Shown: positions 10,999 through 27,404, counted from the stretch's first letter. The stretch is DNA of 45,229 bases from Candidatus Woesearchaeota archaeon (GCA_016180275.1 JACPBN010000006.1:1-45229), one strand, 5' to 3'. Made by a program: numbers and translations. Notes: generated by a model not told the origin, from the letters alone.

Positions 10999-12348
10999 AT
11001 GAAAGAATCCGAAACACTTGAGCTAAAAACATCAACATCTGAATTAAAGGAAGCCATAATCTCAATAGTTGCAATGCTGAACAAGCATAAGAAAGGCAAA
11101 GTGATATTTGGAATGGGAGATGATGGAACTGTTATTGGGCAGATGATTAGCGACAACACATTGAGAGAAGTATCACAAGCCATATTTGATAACATTGAGC
11201 CTAAGATATATCCGACGATTGCTGTAGAAGAGCCATCTATTGCAGTAAGTTTTGAGGACAATAATGCACCTTTTACAGCATATGGCAGAGCCTATATTAG
11301 AGTCGGCACAGAAAATAAAAAGATGACCCAACAAAAATACAATGAGTTATTATCCCTGAAAGCTACAAAACTAGAGTGGGATGCCCTGCCAATAAAAAAT
11401 ACATCAATAAAGGATATAGATCAAAAAAAAGTAGCTGCTTATCTTGAAAAAAGAGAGCAAAATAGAAGAATATCGAAGAAGATAAGCATGAAAAATCAGG
11501 AATTCCTAGAGAACATTAATGCATTGACAAAAGACGGTTTAGTGACAAATGCAGGTATGCTATTTTTCGGCAAAAATCCACAGAAACATATTTTACATTC
11601 TTCACTAAGGCTTGTAAGGATAAAAGGAACAGATATAGGCGGATTAATCTTAGACAGGATTGATGGCACCGGCACCTTATGGGAGATGGTAGAGCAAGCA
11701 GAGGATTTTATAAGAAGAAACATTAAATTAATAGGCTATAAAACTGAAAAAAGCTTTCAAAGGCAGGATAGATTTGAATACCCGATAAGCGCTTTAAGAG
11801 AAGCTATAATAAATGCGCTCATACATAGAAATTATCTGATAAAATCTGAGGCAATAGCTTATATTTATGATGATAAGATAGAAATTCTTAATCCTGGATT
11901 ATTCCCTAAAGGAACTACACCTGAACATCCAAAACATATCCCAAGAAATTTCTTGCTCAGCCAATATATGTATGATATCGGAGAAGTTGAAAAATATGGC
12001 TCAGGAATATTATCAATAAAAAAGAGATGCAAGGAAAATGGGAATAAATTGCCTAAATATGTATTTTCCGAACTTCACACTAAAATAATCTTCTATTCAT
12101 TAGAGCCAGAGAGAACTACCATGAGCAGCGGATTAAGTGAGGGATTAAGTGAGGGATTAAGTGAGGGATTAAAATCACTCCTTAATATTGTAATAAATAA
12201 TCCTGGAATTAAAGCTGTTAAAGTAAGCGAACTTTTACAAAGGCCTATAAAAACAATAGAAAGACAGATAAAAGAGCTAAAGCAAAAAGGCTTCATTGAG
12301 AGAAGAGGAAGCAGGAAAACAGGAGGATACTGGGAGATAAGTAAATAA
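10999..12348 (+). CDS. AlbA_2 (Schlafen-like, divergent AAA) plus HATPase_c_4-like plus C-terminal wHTH protein
   Basis: N-terminal ESETLELKTSTSELKEAIISIVAMLNKHKKGKVIFGMGDDGTVIG. Central YPISALREAIINALIHRNY. C-terminal VSELLQRPIKTIERQIKELKQKGFIERRG. Confidence 0.8.
   Translation: MKESETLELKTSTSELKEAIISIVAMLNKHKKGKVIFGMGDDGTVIGQMISDNTLREVSQAIFDNIEPKIYPTIAVEEPSIAVSFEDNNAPFTAYGRAYIRVGTENKKMTQQKYNELLSLKATKLEWDALPIKNTSIKDIDQKKVAAYLEKREQNRRISKKISMKNQEFLENINALTKDGLVTNAGMLFFGKNPQKHILHSSLRLVRIKGTDIGGLILDRIDGTGTLWEMVEQAEDFIRRNIKLIGYKTEKSFQRQDRFEYPISALREAIINALIHRNYLIKSEAIAYIYDDKIEILNPGLFPKGTTPEHPKHIPRNFLLSQYMYDIGEVEKYGSGILSIKKRCKENGNKLPKYVFSELHTKIIFYSLEPERTTMSSGLSEGLSEGLSEGLKSLLNIVINNPGIKAVKVSELLQRPIKTIERQIKELKQKGFIERRGSRKTGGYWEISK
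12130..12172 (+). repeat. In-frame tandem 12-bp repeat (ggattaagtgag x3 plus a partial copy) encoding (GLSE)3GL
   Basis: 12130-12141, 12142-12153 and 12154-12165 are identical. The repeat forms a linker before the C-terminal wHTH. Confidence 0.9.
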
Positions 12349-14492: not shown

Positions 14493-14514
14493 CCAGATGG
14501 TATCTATAGGTATC

Positions 14515-14760
14515 ATGAATACACAAATAAACTTGCGATTATCGAACCAGACACTAATTTCCGCTAAAGATTATTCTAAAAGGCACGGATTTAGCACGGT
14601 CCAGGAATTTATTAAGGAGACTGTAAGGGAAAAATTGTTTGAAGAGCCAGATATATCTGGAGAAGAATTAGAGCTTGTAAATAAGCTTGCCATAGCAACT
14701 GAAGAAAAAAATTTATATGGCACAGAAGAGGAATTATTTAAGAGGTTAAAAAGAAGATAG
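14515..14760 (+). CDS. Ribbon-helix-helix (CopG-like) antitoxin
   Basis: MNTQINLRLSNQTLISAKDYSKRHGFSTVQEFIKETVREKL fits beta-strand/helix/helix. I use ATG 14515 rather than the track start 14440, because the TATA box lies inside the longer ORF. Confidence 0.6.
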   Translation: MNTQINLRLSNQTLISAKDYSKRHGFSTVQEFIKETVREKLFEEPDISGEELELVNKLAIATEEKNLYGTEEELFKRLKRR

Positions 14761-14761
14761 A

Positions 14762-15058
14762 ATGGAATATATAATTAAGCCTTCTGAATTTTTCTTAGAA
14801 CAGATATCCGAATTAAGCGATGACGCTGCAAGGATAGTTGAAGATAAGATAAGAATGCTAAAGATTAATCCATTTAGGTTTAAGAGGATTGAAGGATATA
14901 GCTTATTTTTGTTTCGAATACGATTTGAGGATAATAGAAAAGAAAAGCGCGCGATATATCTAGTAGATAAGCCATATGTTAAGATTCTTTGCATTTTAGA
15001 TAGGGATAATGATTATAAGGGCCTAAAAAAATATTTGAAACAGCTAGGCTACCTATAA
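14762..15058 (+). CDS. RelE/ParE-superfamily toxin-like protein
   Basis: 98 aa, starting 1 nt after the RHH stop. Pattern IxxKIxxLKxNPFRFKRIEG...LFRIRF...KRAIYLVD...VKILCILDR is typical of the RelE/ParE fold. Confidence 0.55.
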   Translation: MEYIIKPSEFFLEQISELSDDAARIVEDKIRMLKINPFRFKRIEGYSLFLFRIRFEDNRKEKRAIYLVDKPYVKILCILDRDNDYKGLKKYLKQLGYL

Positions 15059-16082: not shown

Positions 16083-16151
16083 GCCAAATCCTATTATACG
16101 TATAAAAACGTGGATATAAGTTATTAGAAGATTATATACGTGCATATACGT

Positions 16152-16337
16152 ATGACTAAAAAAAGCAGTAAAGAAAGCAATAAGGAGAAATTTACGCTAT
16201 ATCTGGACAAGACTCTTAGAGACAGCTATAAAGAATTCTGCCAATTAAGAGGCTATATTCCTTCCAGGATGATTGAGATTTTCATTGAGCAGGAACTGCA
16301 AAAAGCCAGAGAGGATGCTAAAAAGAGAGTAAAATGA
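16152..16337 (+). CDS. Small ribbon-helix-helix-like DNA-binding protein
   Basis: MTKKSSKESNKEKFTLYLDKTLRDSYKEFCQLRGYIPSRMIEIFIEQEL fits the RHH pattern. ATG 16152 is preferred over the track GTG 16140. The stop overlaps the next start (ATGA at 16334-16337). Confidence 0.5.
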   Translation: MTKKSSKESNKEKFTLYLDKTLRDSYKEFCQLRGYIPSRMIEIFIEQELQKAREDAKKRVK

Positions 16338-17407
16338 AAATGACTGCTAAAAAAAATAAAAACAATGCAAAGAAAAATAGCAAGAAGATTGCATTTTACG
16401 TATTTATTGCACTGATAATAGCAATTAATCTGTCAATTATTGCATATGCAGCATCTACTGACAGATTCTGGGATATTGTTGAAAAGATGTATGATTTTGA
16501 GTCAAGGTATGAGAAAAATCTGAAAATATGGGACTTTTTGCTGTTCTCAACAATATTTAACATAATTGCATGGATTGGATTAGTAAAAGCATTCCCGGAT
16601 AATAAAGCAGCAGCTTTCATATTAGCCTTAGTAATAGGCGTAGCGCTTGGTTTGGGAGCAGTGAAAGGAAACCTAACTGTCAAATTCTTTGTTCCATTTG
16701 TGAAGAATATATTGTTCTTTATAGTTATGGGCATAATATTTTTTGTGCTGATTAAGTTTGACATGAACAAATTCCTTGCGTTTATTTTAGCTTTGGTTAT
16801 TACTTTTGTTGCGTTCAATGTGCTTGGGCTGTTTGGCGCAGTTGATACAGGAGGATTGTTCGGAGGAAAGACAAGCTATGACACTTATGATCAGATAAAT
16901 GACCGATTAATTGCCCTGGGCAACAATTATCGTGTCACGTTTGATATTTCAGATGATATTGCTGCAAAGAGCAAGAAGCTCAGAGTGGCGATGCAGAGAG
17001 AGCAAGGAAAGCTGGAGGAAGAGCTCAAAAAGAACCCTAATGACAAGACTGCAAAATCCAAGCTTGATCAGGTCATTGCACACATAAATGAGCTGAATGA
17101 GCTTGAGAGAAAAGGTGCGCTGCTTGAGAAGGAAGAAGAGAAGAAAATCGCAGAGAGAGCTGCAATAGAGTATGATAAGTTCAGGGAGAATTTGACAGAA
17201 ATAAAGAAATTGAAAGGGGATACTCCCGAGCAAGTAAATGCAAAATTTGTTGACCTGAAAAAATTGAATGATGTGATTGAAGAGGAAGAAGGGAAAGTTA
17301 AAGGAACAACTATACCAACTCCAGCACCCACTGGTACTCCGACTCCACCTGCAGGTACAACACCAACAAGCGGAGCAGCTGCATCTGGACCAAATGCTGC
17401 TGATTAA
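16334..17407 (+). CDS. Membrane protein (signal anchor plus 4 TM), coiled coil and P/T-rich tail. Paralogue of 25299-27404.
   Basis: Conserved TM core AAAFILALVIGVALGLGAVKGNLTVKFFVPFVKNILFF...FLAFILALVITFVAFNV (nt ~16607-16831). Coiled coil KLEEELKK...LLEKEEEKKIAERA. Tail TPAPTGTPTPPAGTTPTSG. Confidence 0.8.
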   Translation: MKMTAKKNKNNAKKNSKKIAFYVFIALIIAINLSIIAYAASTDRFWDIVEKMYDFESRYEKNLKIWDFLLFSTIFNIIAWIGLVKAFPDNKAAAFILALVIGVALGLGAVKGNLTVKFFVPFVKNILFFIVMGIIFFVLIKFDMNKFLAFILALVITFVAFNVLGLFGAVDTGGLFGGKTSYDTYDQINDRLIALGNNYRVTFDISDDIAAKSKKLRVAMQREQGKLEEELKKNPNDKTAKSKLDQVIAHINELNELERKGALLEKEEEKKIAERAAIEYDKFRENLTEIKKLKGDTPEQVNAKFVDLKKLNDVIEEEEGKVKGTTIPTPAPTGTPTPPAGTTPTSGAAASGPNAAD

Positions 17408-17435
17408 ACTGCCAAAATCAATACTGCAAAGCAGA

Positions 17436-20318
17436 ATGAAGCATAATAAAATAACCGGAAAGAGAATCATTCTGAGTTTGATAGTTGCAATGCTATTGTC
17501 TTTAGTGATTGTATCTGCCTTAGATGAGAAAAAAATAAAATTGGATGAGCTAGAAAGCATAAAGAAATTAGTCTTGGCTGAGAGACTCAATTCATTCAAT
17601 ATAGTAAAAGCAAAGATTGAGAGATTGCTGAGCGATAAGACATCTGACGGAAAAGATAAGGATGCTGGGGCGATTAAAACTGATAATGATTTAGCGCAGA
17701 AGTTTATTGTTGCATTGACTGAATCTGCGTTTTTAACAGATGAGCAGAAAGGGACATTGACTAATTTACAGACAAGCCAAAGCGCTGCAGCAGCGATAGC
17801 TAAGGAGAAATCTGTTTTTAGCGGCTGGAGATTATGGGCAGCGATACCATTGGTACTTGCATTGATTTATATGTTATTATTGAGAAAGAATAGGTATAAG
17901 ACTGCTGGGAAAGGGATTGGATTTGGAGGAAAATGGCTCTGGCTAATGATAAGCGGGAAAAAAGGAAAGCTGGATGCGATTGAGAGATATAACAACCAGA
18001 TGCTGGAGTTAGAGAATAGGTCAAGGACAGAAATCAAATATATTGTTGATAAATTACTAAAGCAAAAAGAAGAGCTAATTGCCGCAAACGTAAAGAAAGC
18101 AAGCCAGCTTGTGTATTTAGGGCAGCTTGTTGTTAGGAGAATATTTGTTAAAGGCCATGCAAAAGAGCTGTTGGTAGATAAGAAACCTGTAAAAATAGAA
18201 GACGTTGGTGAAATAGAGCCTATCAGGATAGATGAGGTATTGGCTGAACTTGAGAAAATAAATAATAATCTCCCAGTAAAATTAAATGAGATAGTCGGCA
18301 ACCATATAACCATTGTGCAAAGGCATAAAAATCTTCTGGATGAGATTAAAGCGCTTCGCATCAAGACAAATGCTTCTGCACAAAGATTGGCTAATAATTC
18401 ACGAGTAAAAAATGTTTTGGGCAGCAAGATTGCGCAGATGGATTCTGCTGTTGCAAATATGCAGCAGATAATACAGGCACTAGATGACCTTGGTACAAGA
18501 TTAAACAGGAGTGTAGGAGTATTGGAGCAAGGATATGCCAGACAAAACGAATCAATAAAGCTTGAGAATGGCAACTTAAGCGAACTGATCCGTATCATAG
18601 ACAAAAAGTTCCAGGATTTTGCCAATGTTGCGCAGGATATATCTCATGAAGCAAACAAGATCGAACAGTCATTTGCCACCAGAGAAAAAAGAGTGTATAA
18701 CCTGATTGATGCAATCATCAAAAAGATTGAGCAAGAAAATGCAAAAATTCAGAACAGTGCAGGCAATGTAAATACTGGTGAGGCAGATAAATTGATTGAT
18801 GCTGCTACCAATATTGCCAGCATAGCAGAGCGATTAGCTTTGTTCAGGCAAAAAACTGATAAGATAACCACTGAACATCTTAAGTCATTCATTAAAGTAG
18901 TTAAACTGTTAAAGAATGATTTTCCAGAGGTAACGCTGGAAGAATTTAAAGAACAATTGGAAGGATTTGTTATTGTGCATAAGAATAAAGAGTTTAAGAT
19001 AGTTGAGGTTAGCGGAGATAATGTAAAATTGGAAGGAGTAAGCGATGCGATTTCGTTTGAACAGCTAAAGAATATAGATGATTTCTTGGCTAAGAGACAA
19101 TTAAGAAATTTATTGACCCATATTCTGACAAATGCAACTTACTTTGACAATAATGTTTTGAGAGATGTTGTTAATATATTTTTAGAGTTAAAAAATGCTG
19201 AGCCAAGTGCAAAGTTGGAGGAGTTCAAGAGTTTATTAATAGATAAGATAATTAGATACACTACAGAAACAAATGCCTTTATCGGATATAAGATTAAGAA
19301 TGTGATTGAAGATAAGCTTTTTGTTGTTAAAATAGATGAAAAAGATGCAGAAGATCGAACTATTTTAAAATTAGAGATTACACAAATAAAAAATCTATTG
19401 GAGAGAGCAACTGCACCTGCAGCAGCACCTAATCCTGCTCCTACACCAACACCACTTCCACCAAACGCAAGTGCTACATCCCAAGCAAAATACGCAATTA
19501 TTTCAGACATCCATAGCAACCTGCAGGCATTTCAAGCTGTGTTACAGGATATTGCAAAACAAGGAATCCCTGACTCAAATATCTATTGCTGCGGAGATAT
19601 TGTTGGCTATGGAGGAAATCCGAATCAGTGCGTGCAAATAATAAAAGATAGAGATATTAAATGGGTGTTGGGAAACCATGAGTTTGCTATACTTAATCCA
19701 GGCTATGCAGAAAAAGCCGGATTTAATGCATCAGCAACTGCTGCTGTTAACTGGCAGATAACAGAGCTAAATGAGAAATCAAAAGAATTCTTAAATGCAC
19801 AAAAACAAGAAAATTATATATTAGTGAGAGATGATTTTGTTATTGTGCATAGTGAATTAACTAAACCAAAAGAGTTTATGTATCTTTCTGAAGATTTGTA
19901 CAAAAAAACTGGCATAAACTTTGGTATTTTGCTGGGAGATAATTTCAATATATTATCAAAATATAATAAAAGAATTTGCTTTATTGGACATAGCCACATG
20001 CCTGAAATTTGGACAATTGATGCTAATAATAAAATGGAAAAGGGAGATATAAATATGCAGGATAAAAAAGGAATAGTTGATATTACAAATGCAAAAAACG
20101 TAATAGTCAATGTTGGAAGCGTAGGCCAGCCTAGAGATGGAGACACAAGAGCATGCTATGTGATTTATGACAAAGAAAATAGCAAAATTGCTATAAGGTA
20201 TGTAAGAGTAGGTTATAATGTTGCAGCTGCACAACAAGCTATTCTAAGTAGAATCCCTGATGGATATAATGAAGTTGCGGCAAATTATATGGCAGAAAGA
20301 CTAGCTAATGGCAGATAA
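17436..20318 (+). CDS. Membrane-anchored long coiled-coil protein with a C-terminal metallophosphoesterase (calcineurin-like) domain
   Basis: ATG 17436 gives MKHNKITGKRIILSLIVAMLLSLVIVSA (anchor); a second TM is WAAIPLVLALIYMLLL. About 600 aa of helical repeats follow, then the P/T/A linker APAAAPNPAPTPTPLPP. MPP motifs: AIISDIHSN, GDIVGYGG, GNHE, GHSH, GSVGQPRDGD (nt ~19484-20315). Confidence 0.85.
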   Translation: MKHNKITGKRIILSLIVAMLLSLVIVSALDEKKIKLDELESIKKLVLAERLNSFNIVKAKIERLLSDKTSDGKDKDAGAIKTDNDLAQKFIVALTESAFLTDEQKGTLTNLQTSQSAAAAIAKEKSVFSGWRLWAAIPLVLALIYMLLLRKNRYKTAGKGIGFGGKWLWLMISGKKGKLDAIERYNNQMLELENRSRTEIKYIVDKLLKQKEELIAANVKKASQLVYLGQLVVRRIFVKGHAKELLVDKKPVKIEDVGEIEPIRIDEVLAELEKINNNLPVKLNEIVGNHITIVQRHKNLLDEIKALRIKTNASAQRLANNSRVKNVLGSKIAQMDSAVANMQQIIQALDDLGTRLNRSVGVLEQGYARQNESIKLENGNLSELIRIIDKKFQDFANVAQDISHEANKIEQSFATREKRVYNLIDAIIKKIEQENAKIQNSAGNVNTGEADKLIDAATNIASIAERLALFRQKTDKITTEHLKSFIKVVKLLKNDFPEVTLEEFKEQLEGFVIVHKNKEFKIVEVSGDNVKLEGVSDAISFEQLKNIDDFLAKRQLRNLLTHILTNATYFDNNVLRDVVNIFLELKNAEPSAKLEEFKSLLIDKIIRYTTETNAFIGYKIKNVIEDKLFVVKIDEKDAEDRTILKLEITQIKNLLERATAPAAAPNPAPTPTPLPPNASATSQAKYAIISDIHSNLQAFQAVLQDIAKQGIPDSNIYCCGDIVGYGGNPNQCVQIIKDRDIKWVLGNHEFAILNPGYAEKAGFNASATAAVNWQITELNEKSKEFLNAQKQENYILVRDDFVIVHSELTKPKEFMYLSEDLYKKTGINFGILLGDNFNILSKYNKRICFIGHSHMPEIWTIDANNKMEKGDINMQDKKGIVDITNAKNVIVNVGSVGQPRDGDTRACYVIYDKENSKIAIRYVRVGYNVAAAQQAILSRIPDGYNEVAANYMAERLANGR

Positions 20319-25298: not shown

Positions 25299-27404
25299 AT
25301 GAGAAGCAATAATTTTAACAATAAATTTATGAGAAAGTTGATTGTGAATATTTCATATATAATAATAGCTCTGATGCTTAGCATTGTCGTAATAAATATC
25401 GCAAGCGCAGAAACAACACTTGAGCAGGATGTTGCAAGTTTTGGGAGGTCAGCATTAGGAAAACTAAGCGGGCAAAGCAACACGAAAGGAGTTGGCAATG
25501 ACCCCATACAAGGCACAGGCAAGCTGGTTGATTTTTATAACAGGAACCAGAGCCTGATAGATTTCTTTATCATGTTTGCACTGTTCTGCAGCATTGCATT
25601 AATTGGATTAAAGAAGACAGGATTTGGGGAGTCAGGAGGAAATGCCATGAAGGGATTAGCGATTGCAGTTGGAGCAGCATTGGCAATTGCTGCATTAAAA
25701 GCCGGATATTCCCCTAGCTTTTTTGTGCCATTTGTAAAGAATTTCCTGTTCCTGATAATATTCTTTGTAATATTTATGGTAATAAAAGCCACAATGAGTC
25801 AAAATGTTCTCCTTGCATTTATTTTGGCTTTAGTAATAACATGGGTTGCATTTAATGTAGCTAATTTGGTGTTAGAAGGCAAGGAGAATAAGTTTGACAT
25901 GGCGAATGTGTTCAAATTGATGGCAGGCTCTCCGACTGATACAGACGAACAGAGAAGGCTGAGCAATATTGAGGTAAGGCAGACACAAGATGAGCTGGAC
26001 GCGCTTTACGAAGAGAAAGGGCGTCTTGAAGAATTGATTGGAAATGGAGAGTATAAATCAAAGTTTTTAGTGGAGCAAGCACGTGAGAGTGAAAAAGATG
26101 AGAAGAAAAAAGCAAACTTAATGAGATTATTTGATGTGATGGGAAAAATAGAAGAGCTTGAGGCAAAGATGCAGAAAGAGATGGGCAAGAGATTTGATTA
26201 TGACAAACAAAATCCTACAACGCCTAAACTAAATTTAAGAATAAGTGATGATAAAACTAAATTAATTTGCACAATTGACCCTACAACAGGAAAGATGTCT
26301 GGCGCTCCTGAAAATGTGAATAAAGACATAAAATACAGATTTGAGTTTTCTGTTGACGGTAATGTTAAGAAATATTATGATATTGATTATAAGGACAGGG
26401 CAACTGAACAGACGTATTCATTAGAAAAAGAAGGAGTTTGGAAATGCAAAGTTTATGCTTATATAGAAACATACGGCAAGACACCAGACCAAGTTACGCC
26501 GGGAGAGGCAATGCTGGATTATTTAGGCGCAGAACATGAAGCAGATAAAACTGCATTTGAGACTAATAAAGCAATAATAGAAAGCGAGAGAGAAGCTACT
26601 GATAAAATTAATGGTGCAGTTGCTGCATTGAAAGGATTAAAAGGAAGGACATACTATAATAGGAATAAAAACGAAATAGATAAGTTTATAAATGCTGGAG
26701 AAATAAAGGTTAAAGCAATAAATGTTTACAAAGAAGTTACAACTGAGCAGGCAACTATTGCTAGCATAACAGGTACTACAGCAACAGAGATAGCAAGTAA
26801 GAAAAAAGCTAAAATTGATCCTTTGATTAGTAAAATACAAGAGGTGTTGAATATCTGGAAACCTTATAGAGGCATTGATACTGCATTTGATGCACTTCTT
26901 GATAATAAGTTAGCTGAGTTAAAAGGTTCTTCTCCTGATACAACTATCCCTAATTTTGCTGGAAAAAGAAATGTAGATAGTTCATCTGGACAAAAATACA
27001 CTTTAACAGATGATGACGAATTTATAAATGGCCAGCCGAAAGGTGAGTACGGAGTAAAAATTAATTTTGGGCCAAAAGAGATAATGGTTGCACAAAAACA
27101 AACTATCAGGCTTTCTATATCCTTGGATAGCGAGATACCTAATAAGTTTAGAATAATTTTCGGCCATGCCGTGAATCAGGTTTTAGCTAGCCAGACAATT
27201 GATGAGACAATAGATAATTCTGCTAAGACAATCAACTTTGAGATTCCTGTTACTAGTTATGATGCACGTAATTCGCAGAAAGAGATAATTGTAGAAGTAT
27301 ATGATATGGATGGAAATACAGCGAGTACAAATATTGTTAGATTTGAATATAATGTAAATGTACAGCCTGCAGGACCAATACAATATGGCTCTGGAAAATT
27401 ATAG
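25299..27404 (+). CDS. Membrane protein (signal anchor plus 4 TM), coiled coil and a ~420-aa beta-rich C-terminal region. Paralogue of 16334-17407.
   Basis: Core AMKGLAIAVGAALAIAALKAGYSPSFFVPFVKNFLFL...LLAFILALVITWVAFNV (nt ~25647-25868) aligns with the operon-2 protein. Coiled coil DELDALYEEKGRLEELI...IEELEAKMQKE. Confidence 0.8.
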   Translation: MRSNNFNNKFMRKLIVNISYIIIALMLSIVVINIASAETTLEQDVASFGRSALGKLSGQSNTKGVGNDPIQGTGKLVDFYNRNQSLIDFFIMFALFCSIALIGLKKTGFGESGGNAMKGLAIAVGAALAIAALKAGYSPSFFVPFVKNFLFLIIFFVIFMVIKATMSQNVLLAFILALVITWVAFNVANLVLEGKENKFDMANVFKLMAGSPTDTDEQRRLSNIEVRQTQDELDALYEEKGRLEELIGNGEYKSKFLVEQARESEKDEKKKANLMRLFDVMGKIEELEAKMQKEMGKRFDYDKQNPTTPKLNLRISDDKTKLICTIDPTTGKMSGAPENVNKDIKYRFEFSVDGNVKKYYDIDYKDRATEQTYSLEKEGVWKCKVYAYIETYGKTPDQVTPGEAMLDYLGAEHEADKTAFETNKAIIESEREATDKINGAVAALKGLKGRTYYNRNKNEIDKFINAGEIKVKAINVYKEVTTEQATIASITGTTATEIASKKKAKIDPLISKIQEVLNIWKPYRGIDTAFDALLDNKLAELKGSSPDTTIPNFAGKRNVDSSSGQKYTLTDDDEFINGQPKGEYGVKINFGPKEIMVAQKQTIRLSISLDSEIPNKFRIIFGHAVNQVLASQTIDETIDNSAKTINFEIPVTSYDARNSQKEIIVEVYDMDGNTASTNIVRFEYNVNVQPAGPIQYGSGKL

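Follow-up and report, generated by a model that had tools for sequence, protein, structure and literature searches.

The gene at positions 17,436 to 20,318 of a 45,229-nucleotide stretch of Candidatus Woesearchaeota archaeon (GCA_016180275.1 JACPBN010000006.1:1-45229, hereafter the window) encodes P0002, a membrane-anchored fusion of a long helical region, here called the stalk, with an intact metallophosphoesterase (MPP) domain. P0002 is probably, at moderate confidence, a cytoplasm-facing, membrane-tethered phosphoesterase recruited to a two-protein membrane module of Woesearchaeota, possibly with a receptor-like role. The fusion had been noticed in an original prediction made from the sequence alone, and it is upheld here as a single continuous open reading frame. 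One unbroken frame on the + strand extends from 17277 to 20318 (longest frame), and within it P0002 comprises 960 aa from the ATG at 17436, a start that agrees with that of its closest relative, P0004; the public gene call, P0003, begins 14 codons further upstream, at 17394. An assembly or frameshift artefact behind the fusion is rejected on the continuity of the frame, and also on a second, independent fused form present in 3 metagenome contigs and 1 GTDB genome. The protein consists of the following parts, with transmembrane segments abbreviated TM and lysine and arginine residues K/R:

17436..20318, + strand: P0002, the stalk-MPP fusion gene including its stop codon (960 aa).
17463..17522, + strand: TM1 or signal anchor, aa 10-29, by hydropathy, with 4 K/R ahead.
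17523..17825, + strand: predicted helical ectodomain of ~100 aa, aa 30-130, from the topology and from helices at 32-65, 77-95 and 102-119.
17826..17885, + strand: TM2, aa 131-150, by hydropathy and charge, followed by a K/R-rich juxtamembrane stretch.
17958..18854, + strand: predicted cytoplasmic antiparallel helical bundle, aa 175-473 (AlphaFold2, predicted local distance difference test, pLDDT, 75-95).
18948..19085, + strand: small beta domain, aa 505-550, from predicted strands, with an ‘LEEFK’ helix leading in.
19086..19400, + strand: variable helical region, aa 551-655, poorly predicted (pLDDT 26-44).
19413..19463, + strand: linker rich in proline, threonine and alanine, aa 660-676, from the sequence.
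19482..20315, + strand: MPP domain, aa 683-960, from Pfam, 3rqz matches, Foldseek and alignment.

By alignment, the C-terminal domain is a member of the calcineurin-like MPP superfamily with all metal-binding motifs intact. Pfam assigns aa 685-914 to PF12850 (E = 6.7e-14, 52.6 bits against a cut-off of 27) and PF00149 (E = 2.8e-11, 44.6 bits against a cut-off of 21.5). The motifs SDIH (690-693), CGD (719-721), GNHE (746-749), VHSE (804-807), GHSH (851-854) and GSVGQPRDGD (894-903) match those of PDB entry 3rqz and of standalone relatives column for column; the canonical motifs claimed for the C-terminus are thus all present, with active-site residues neither misaligned nor absent. A phmmer search against the PDB retrieves 3rqz at E = 1.7e-24, and a profile of the domain ranks 3rqz (3.3e-66), 1nnw, 2gju, SapH 3qfm (2.8e-16), 2qjc (a putative Ap4A hydrolase), YfcE, lambda phosphatase (4.3e-5) and ApaH (2.5e-4). 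In Foldseek, 3rqz_B leads (E = 7.9e-12, TM-score 0.80 on the target), followed by SapH (E = 2.2e-8, TM-score ~0.7) and then by PP1-type phosphatases. The comparison with the Mre11/SbcD, ApaH and YfcE classes that had been proposed as a check places the domain, by profile and modelled structure, in the 3rqz/SapH/ApaH-like branch. The ApaH equivalog model of NCBIfam, NF001204, reaches 30.7 bits against a cut-off of 176, with the match limited to the first 75 residues, and because this lies so far below the cut-off no specific substrate is assignable. More than 7,600 proteins of 152-487 aa match the domain at 34-40% identity, those listed being ~240 aa long.

The membrane topology is predicted from hydropathy and charge. 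The two N-terminal hydrophobic segments reported earlier are recovered at aa 10-29 and 131-150, where Kyte-Doolittle 19-residue means reach 2.97 and 1.99, and aa 151-960 contain no further hydrophobic segment (maximum 0.91). TM1 is preceded by four K/R and zero acidic residues, and the 30 residues past TM2 hold nine K/R and no aspartate or glutamate in P0002, against 11 and 0 in P0004 and 7 and 2 in P0013, a more distant relative. Under the positive-inside rule, the K/R-rich flanks of TM helices lie on the cytoplasmic side. The positive charge N-terminal of TM1 and C-terminal of TM2 therefore predicts an N-in, loop-out, C-in arrangement, with aa 30-130 outside and aa 151-960 in the cytoplasm, so that only the ~100 residues between the two TM helices would be exposed outside the cell. 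A VSA-L motif is a candidate signal-peptidase site, and TM1 could be a signal peptide that is cleaved off; in either case the C-terminal part would be found on the same side of the membrane. In those relatives in which the MPP is encoded by a separate gene, the MPP protein has no hydrophobic N-terminus or segment (maximum 19-residue mean 1.09), and the aligned standalone relatives open directly with the catalytic domain. N-glycosylation sequons were considered as a topology hint and are unusable, the numbers being too small: the ectodomain has none where 0.6 would be expected, and the cytoplasmic stalk has 7 where 3.2 would be expected.

The region between TM2 and the linker had been described as a coiled coil of ~600 aa. 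Its length and helical character stand, but it is predicted to be a compact antiparallel bundle of ~80-100 Å plus beta elements and is probably not a single extended coiled coil. AlphaFold2 was run on the whole of P0002 (9 alignment rows, mean pLDDT 67.6) and on aa 165-560 alone (5 alignment rows, mean pLDDT 84.9, predicted TM-score 0.64), and both runs give helices at aa 175-233, 265-317, 323-390, 392-443 and 447-473, of 59, 53, 68, 52 and 27 residues. The predicted fold is a rod of four long helices (52-68 residues) with the shorter fifth as a cap; a dimeric coiled coil is also compatible with this monomer prediction from a 5-row alignment. A short beta hairpin is predicted at aa 252-260, and the strands of the small beta domain at 512-515, 518-526, 529-532 and 538-540; this domain is 65% identical to that of P0004. 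The stretch aa 559-655 is predicted to be helical with pLDDT below 45, and BLAST detects no similarity between the variable region (aa 551-655) and the equivalent region of any relative. The helix ending in ‘LEEFK’ and the small beta domain seemingly occur twice, at aa 496-550 and 588-655 (window 18930-19400), with a further occurrence at the C-terminal end of P0004; the similarity in sequence is weak, and aa 588-655 are probably a second, diverged copy. The linker APAAAPNPAPTPTPLPP, at aa 660-676, is P/T-rich and stands ahead of the MPP domain as had been stated, while the relatives have different S/T/P-rich linkers at the same side of the domain.

The stalk belongs to no family in Pfam, NCBIfam, PADLOC or PHROGs, so that no family of defined role in these collections claims it, and the first 680 residues return nothing credible in Pfam; the stray rows are Na_Ca_ex_C, which at 22.4 bits falls short of its cut-off, and phrog_3590 (E = 0.0037). 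Foldseek of the stalk-only model against the PDB yields zero matches at E ≤ 1e-3, and one match related to MCP proteins is insignificant (rank 48, E = 0.11). VIA-align returns only generic long-helix bundles, the best being the de novo design 8gl3 (Z 15.1, root-mean-square deviation 2.3 Å over 187 residues), followed by BAR domains and trypanosome receptor bundles at Z 10-12; Z values of this size are usual for helical rods and neither name nor exclude a family. The earlier statement that no system with this layout has been described is borne out by the stalk without a family, by the generic bundles in the PDB and by a literature search, which found nothing coupling Woesearchaeota with a metallophosphoesterase.

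The stalk gene is preceded by two conserved genes in the same operon:

16140..16337, + strand: small DNA-binding protein of RHH/Arc-like type (65 aa), encoded by the gene that opens the operon; it matches the Arc-like repressor family PHROG 582 at E = 1.9e-4.
16334..17407, + strand: P0009, 357-aa polytopic membrane protein, from translation and hydropathy.

The RHH gene, which has an alternative ATG at 16152, overlaps the start of P0009 with its stop codon (ATGA, 16334-16337), and 28 nucleotides separate the end of P0009 from the stalk gene. P0009 contains five hydrophobic segments (aa 19-37, 65-86, 92-110, 118-140 and 146-168), a K/R-rich N-terminus, a charged helical C-terminal region and the P/T-rich tail that had been noted in the preceding membrane protein and is seen in its translation. 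Given the K/R-rich N-terminus and the five segments, the C-terminal region and the tail are predicted to lie outside. The order RHH gene, P0009, stalk is retained in every related locus; the RHH protein is 81-86% identical at the same position in L001, L002 and L003, and P0009, with a nearly invariant TM core, is 56-77% identical across the related loci; set beside the stalk, the values are 56-83% for P0009 versus 23-64% for the stalk. A perfect 12-bp palindrome, TTATACGTATAA, lies upstream of the RHH gene at 16094-16105, and two further sites with a TACGT core, at ~16133-16153, overlap its start. From their sequence, the palindrome and TACGT sites (16094-16155) look like putative operators for autoregulation of the operon.

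A contact between P0009 and the outer region of the stalk is weakly suggested by complex prediction. The pair of P0009 and stalk aa 1-175 scores 0.57, with the best control at 0.00; the runs share at least 69% of contacts, and the partner pLDDT is at least 70. The mark used for such predictions is reached by 58 of 80 solved complexes and by 2 of 110 mismatched pairs, but scores of 0.60 or less include only 7 of the 80 solved complexes and both of the passing mismatches. Between the two clades of the family described below, TM1 is 47-53% conserved and the first outer helix (aa 30-70) 50% identical, against 21% for the cytoplasmic bundle; that no part of the stalk is better conserved than TM1 and the first outer helix fits a docking role.

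The stalk and the phosphoesterase occur both as one protein and as two. When aa 1-665 served as query for an exhaustive HMMER search of 1.8 billion representative proteins, five matches were obtained, all from this small family: the protein itself, P0004 (764 aa, 49-52% identical over aa 1-552), an 84-aa fragment, P0012 (674 aa, 28%) and P0013 (996 aa, 28%). The loci, taken from the contigs of these proteins and from two GTDB genomes, show four arrangements:

Window: fused, 960 aa, clade I.
L001: split, 764-aa stalk and 312-aa MPP gene 22 nucleotides downstream, its MPP 66-72% identical to the window domain, clade I.
L002/L003/L004/L009: fused, 996-1009 aa, clade II.
L005/L006/L007/L010: split, 674 aa and 414 aa, clade II.

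Pairwise identities of all three proteins group the window with L001 and L002 with L005, and one fused and one split form in each clade require at least two fusion or fission events. The boundary between the stalk and MPP genes sits at differing points of the domain series: the domain that ends the L001 stalk is internal in the fused P0013, directly ahead of its MPP, and in P0013 the stretch immediately before the MPP has a further match, to the end of the N-terminal extension carried by the MPP protein of L005. The presence of fused and split forms in each clade is classical evidence that the stalk and the MPP act together. The fused L002-type MPP is the most diverged, at 35-38% identity to the other module MPPs. 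In P0013 (L002:1921-4911, L009:10561-13590) the domain is kept at full length and key catalytic residues are gone, which makes it, judged by sequence, a probable pseudo-enzyme within the same module.

The phyletic survey that had been suggested for the fusion finds the stalk family only in one GTDB genus and in a small number of metagenome contigs. Across the 401 genomes of the order that were searched, the stalk profile matches only the window genome and two other genomes of the same genus; two extra rows (E = 1.2e-5 and 9.4e-4) span short pieces only and are taken as chance. By these searches, the stalk constitutes an orphan family limited to a single genus, and the catalytic domain is unremarkable within its large family. 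The 5-TM core of P0009 is found in 13 of 400 other genomes of the order, in open reading frames of 258-1692 aa and often two per locus. In other genera, homologues of the window genes p1038, p620 and p874 stand ahead of one or two 5-TM-core genes, and the gene after the core encodes a protein of 540-810 aa; several of these proteins have a signal or TM1, a small ectodomain, TM2 and a cytoplasmic helical region, the same layout as the stalk. The loci examined in other genera contain no MPP and no detectable stalk homologue; the MPP is thus an addition specific to this genus, made to a two-protein membrane module of wider occurrence. When compared by hhalign with genes after the 5-TM core, the stalk shows no similarity to one and marginal similarity to two (E ~1e-3, probability 16-19%, N-terminal 40-60 residues only), so its homology to the partner proteins of other genera is not established on this comparison. 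Two of the partner proteins, L037:5068-7089 and L038:8821-11022, share with the stalk a signal/TM segment, an acidic ‘DE’ stretch and a helix with an L-x-ER motif, and this N-terminal pattern, marginal as it is by hhalign, may be a common docking element.

The catalytic domain has close counterparts, but in different settings. The Sphaerobacter thermophilus MPP 3rqz, which has no biochemical function recorded, and the standalone family of ~240 aa (COG0639-type, labelled ApaH/PP2A-family or predicted phosphodiesterase) share the same domain, including GxVGQPRDG, with thousands of the standalone proteins at 36-40% identity, yet are free and soluble, whereas the domain of P0002 ends a 680-residue membrane-anchored helical protein or, in the split forms, is encoded right after such a stalk. 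SapH/Spr1479 of Streptococcus pneumoniae (3qfm, titled in the PDB as an asymmetric Ap4A hydrolase and phosphodiesterase), ApaH and lambda phosphatase belong to the same branch but are soluble and only 22-24% identical to the P0002 domain. Nearer in architecture are P0005, P0006 and P0007, which have an N-terminal MPP, a single TM near residue 300 and, on its far side, discoidin or PA14 domains, and P0008, in which the same MPP subfamily is fused to a Ser/Thr kinase; these four, most likely bacterial by their sequence composition, have MPPs 28-34% identical to that of P0002, and the membrane-anchored ones carry them on the cytoplasmic side. P0005-P0007 differ from P0002 in the reverse domain order (MPP, TM, outer domain) and in having no helical bundle, but offer a precedent in which an MPP of this subfamily forms the inner part of a receptor-like protein with a single TM. 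The stalk can be likened to the bitopic helical tethers EzrA and ZipA, which are membrane-anchored, mostly helical cytoplasmic proteins. It also resembles two-TM chemoreceptors and sensor kinases in its series of TM1, small helical ectodomain, TM2, cytoplasmic bundle and output domain. Those receptors carry HAMP, MCP-signal or HisKA domains, whereas Pfam finds none in P0002 at E ≤ 0.01, and the output domain of P0002 is a phosphoesterase.

The immediate neighbours of P0002 are the RHH protein, the 5-TM protein and an opposite-strand AAA_14/DUF4143 ATPase. Elsewhere in the window, 25299-27404 encodes a 701-aa protein with a paralogue of the 5-TM core (~44% identical to P0009 over aa 75-190); its gene is the first of the next operon, in which a 1474-aa protein is also encoded, and many genomes of the order likewise have two core genes a few kb apart. 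An antitoxin-like gene (14497-14760) and a RelE-like gene (14762-15058; PHROG 1213, E = 4e-5) are 97-99% identical between the window and L005:6611-7169, while the flanking conserved genes are 55-76% identical, and the far higher identity of the pair suggests a recent exchange of a toxin-antitoxin cassette between lineages. A gene with Schlafen AlbA_2, HATPase_c_4 and winged helix-turn-helix domains lies at 10999-12348, 4 kb upstream of the module, and a 44%-identical Schlafen homologue stands between the 5-TM and stalk genes in L005 (8607-9965) and L010 (876-2222). This difference in position indicates that the operon junctions accept inserted genes. A viral or plasmid origin of the locus is rejected, as PHROGs give no structural or replication matches and the same locus order is present in other genera.

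In the proposed arrangement, one RHH-regulated operon would supply the whole complex: the regulator, the 5-TM core protein P0009 and the stalk protein with its phosphoesterase. The stalk protein would insert by two membrane helices, leaving ~100 helical residues outside, and these would dock on a conserved outer loop or on the core of P0009. On the cytoplasmic side would follow the 80-100 Å bundle, one or two small beta domains, the flexible P/T linker and the intact two-metal phosphoesterase, with the stalk holding the enzyme at a fixed distance beneath the membrane, beside the complex. The enzyme would most likely hydrolyse either a phosphoprotein or a small phosphoester or phosphoanhydride, the latter as a nucleotide-derived signal of the kind of dinucleoside polyphosphates or cyclic nucleotides, and this hydrolysis may respond to what the outer part senses. 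It is the two TM helices around a small ectodomain, followed by a cytoplasmic bundle and an output domain, that make the layout receptor-like. A more far-reaching version, which is rather unlikely, sees a new type of archaeal transmembrane receptor, in which the outer helical domain and the 5-TM partner would report an envelope event, for example contact with a host or attack by a virus, and the bundle would relay it to an ApaH-like phosphoesterase that resets a nucleotide or phosphoprotein signal. If this were true, the recurrent fusions and fissions, together with the decay of catalysis in one lineage, would represent a signalling module built and rebuilt within one DPANN genus.

Several points weigh against the preferred account of a cytoplasmic, module-bound phosphoesterase. 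The topology is read from hydropathy and charge counts, and P/T linkers are commoner among exported archaeal proteins. AlphaFold worked from very shallow alignments of 5-9 rows; of the five models of the stalk, two reach only 55-58 pLDDT, and the pass of the P0009 complex prediction is a weak one. The term receptor-like describes the layout, since P0002 has neither a HAMP nor an MCP-signal domain nor any other recognised signalling module. Public-record names of the 3rqz subfamily are generic only and do not fix its substrate class. In addition, P0013 has GNIH for SDIH, GEHD for GNHE, AHTQ for GHSH and GLSSDG for GQPRDG, and this loss of catalytic residues implies that catalysis is not essential to the module in every lineage.

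The loss of catalytic residues in one lineage would also be in keeping with an anti-virus or conflict module, which is an unlikely alternative: the membrane pair would sense an envelope event such as virus entry, and the phosphoesterase would be the effector or a signal-clearing enzyme that degrades a nucleotide second messenger or depletes a nucleotide pool. The region is full of defence-type cassettes (MNT/HEPN pairs, the RelE-like pair, Schlafen/AlbA_2, ORF6N, and AAA_14/DUF4143 and ATPase_2/DUF234 ATPases), the stalk evolves fast (23-49% identity) relative to its neighbours (56-83%), and the family is limited to one genus. Against these features, PADLOC-DB 2.0 gives P0002 no match and P0009 only a marginal one to PDC-S66 (E = 0.0023), and no nuclease, NADase or pore-forming effector is present. 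Moreover, the operon forms part of the conserved framework of the locus and is not an inserted cassette: in other genera, too, the 5-TM core and its partner gene are found beside the p1038/p620/p874 genes.

Quite unlikely is a scaffold, in which the MPP would be mainly a binding or structural head and the protein a strut in an apparatus of the membrane or surface that the genes around it encode. That the fused sister lineage lost several metal-binding residues and still has a full-length domain would be expected of such a head; the module is also flanked by two conserved membrane or surface-protein operons, and its MPPs contain lineage-specific insertions, three in the domain of P0002, that are absent from the standalone relatives. 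What speaks for catalysis is that the window, L001 and L005/L010 keep every catalytic motif in the active-site pattern of 3rqz and the standalone proteins, which would be unexpected without selection for it.

The original prediction had proposed that the phosphoesterase is displayed outside the cell on its long stalk and acts on external or host-surface substrates. This is now very unlikely, even though the P/T-rich linker and the similar tail on the upstream membrane protein, the resemblance of the N-terminal segment to a signal peptide, and the probable attachment of a DPANN archaeon to a host all make it attractive. With two hydrophobic segments and strong positive charge before TM1 and after TM2, the chain should return to the cytoplasm; the split-form MPPs carry no export signal, the standalone relatives begin with the catalytic domain, and related single-pass fusions put this MPP on the inner side.

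The other earlier proposal, a membrane-tethered Mre11/SbcD-like nuclease working without the SbcC/Rad50 ATPase, is highly improbable: an MPP fold with long helices loosely recalls SbcCD, and a distant relation is compatible with the data, but no Mre11/SbcD chain appears among the profile matches at E ≤ 0.1 or the best 50 Foldseek matches, the closest relatives of known structure are protein phosphatases and phosphoesterases acting on small molecules, Pfam detects neither an Mre11_DNA_bind match nor a capping domain in P0002, and Pfam on the neighbours shows no SMC/Rad50/SbcC-type gene adjacent to it.

DPANN archaea have tiny genomes with a large share of membrane and surface genes without known function. 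Here an orphan membrane module is linked to an enzyme of well-understood catalytic mechanism, and the coexistence of fused and split gene forms provides independent evidence that the parts work together. As far as the searched literature goes, the combination, its repeated fusion and fission and its catalytic decay in one lineage are undescribed. The attractive idea of an enzyme on the cell surface acting on a host is probably wrong and is corrected accordingly. The family is confined to one genus, which limits the reach of the finding; within it, the phosphoesterase can be assayed, and its substrate would point to the role of the membrane pair.

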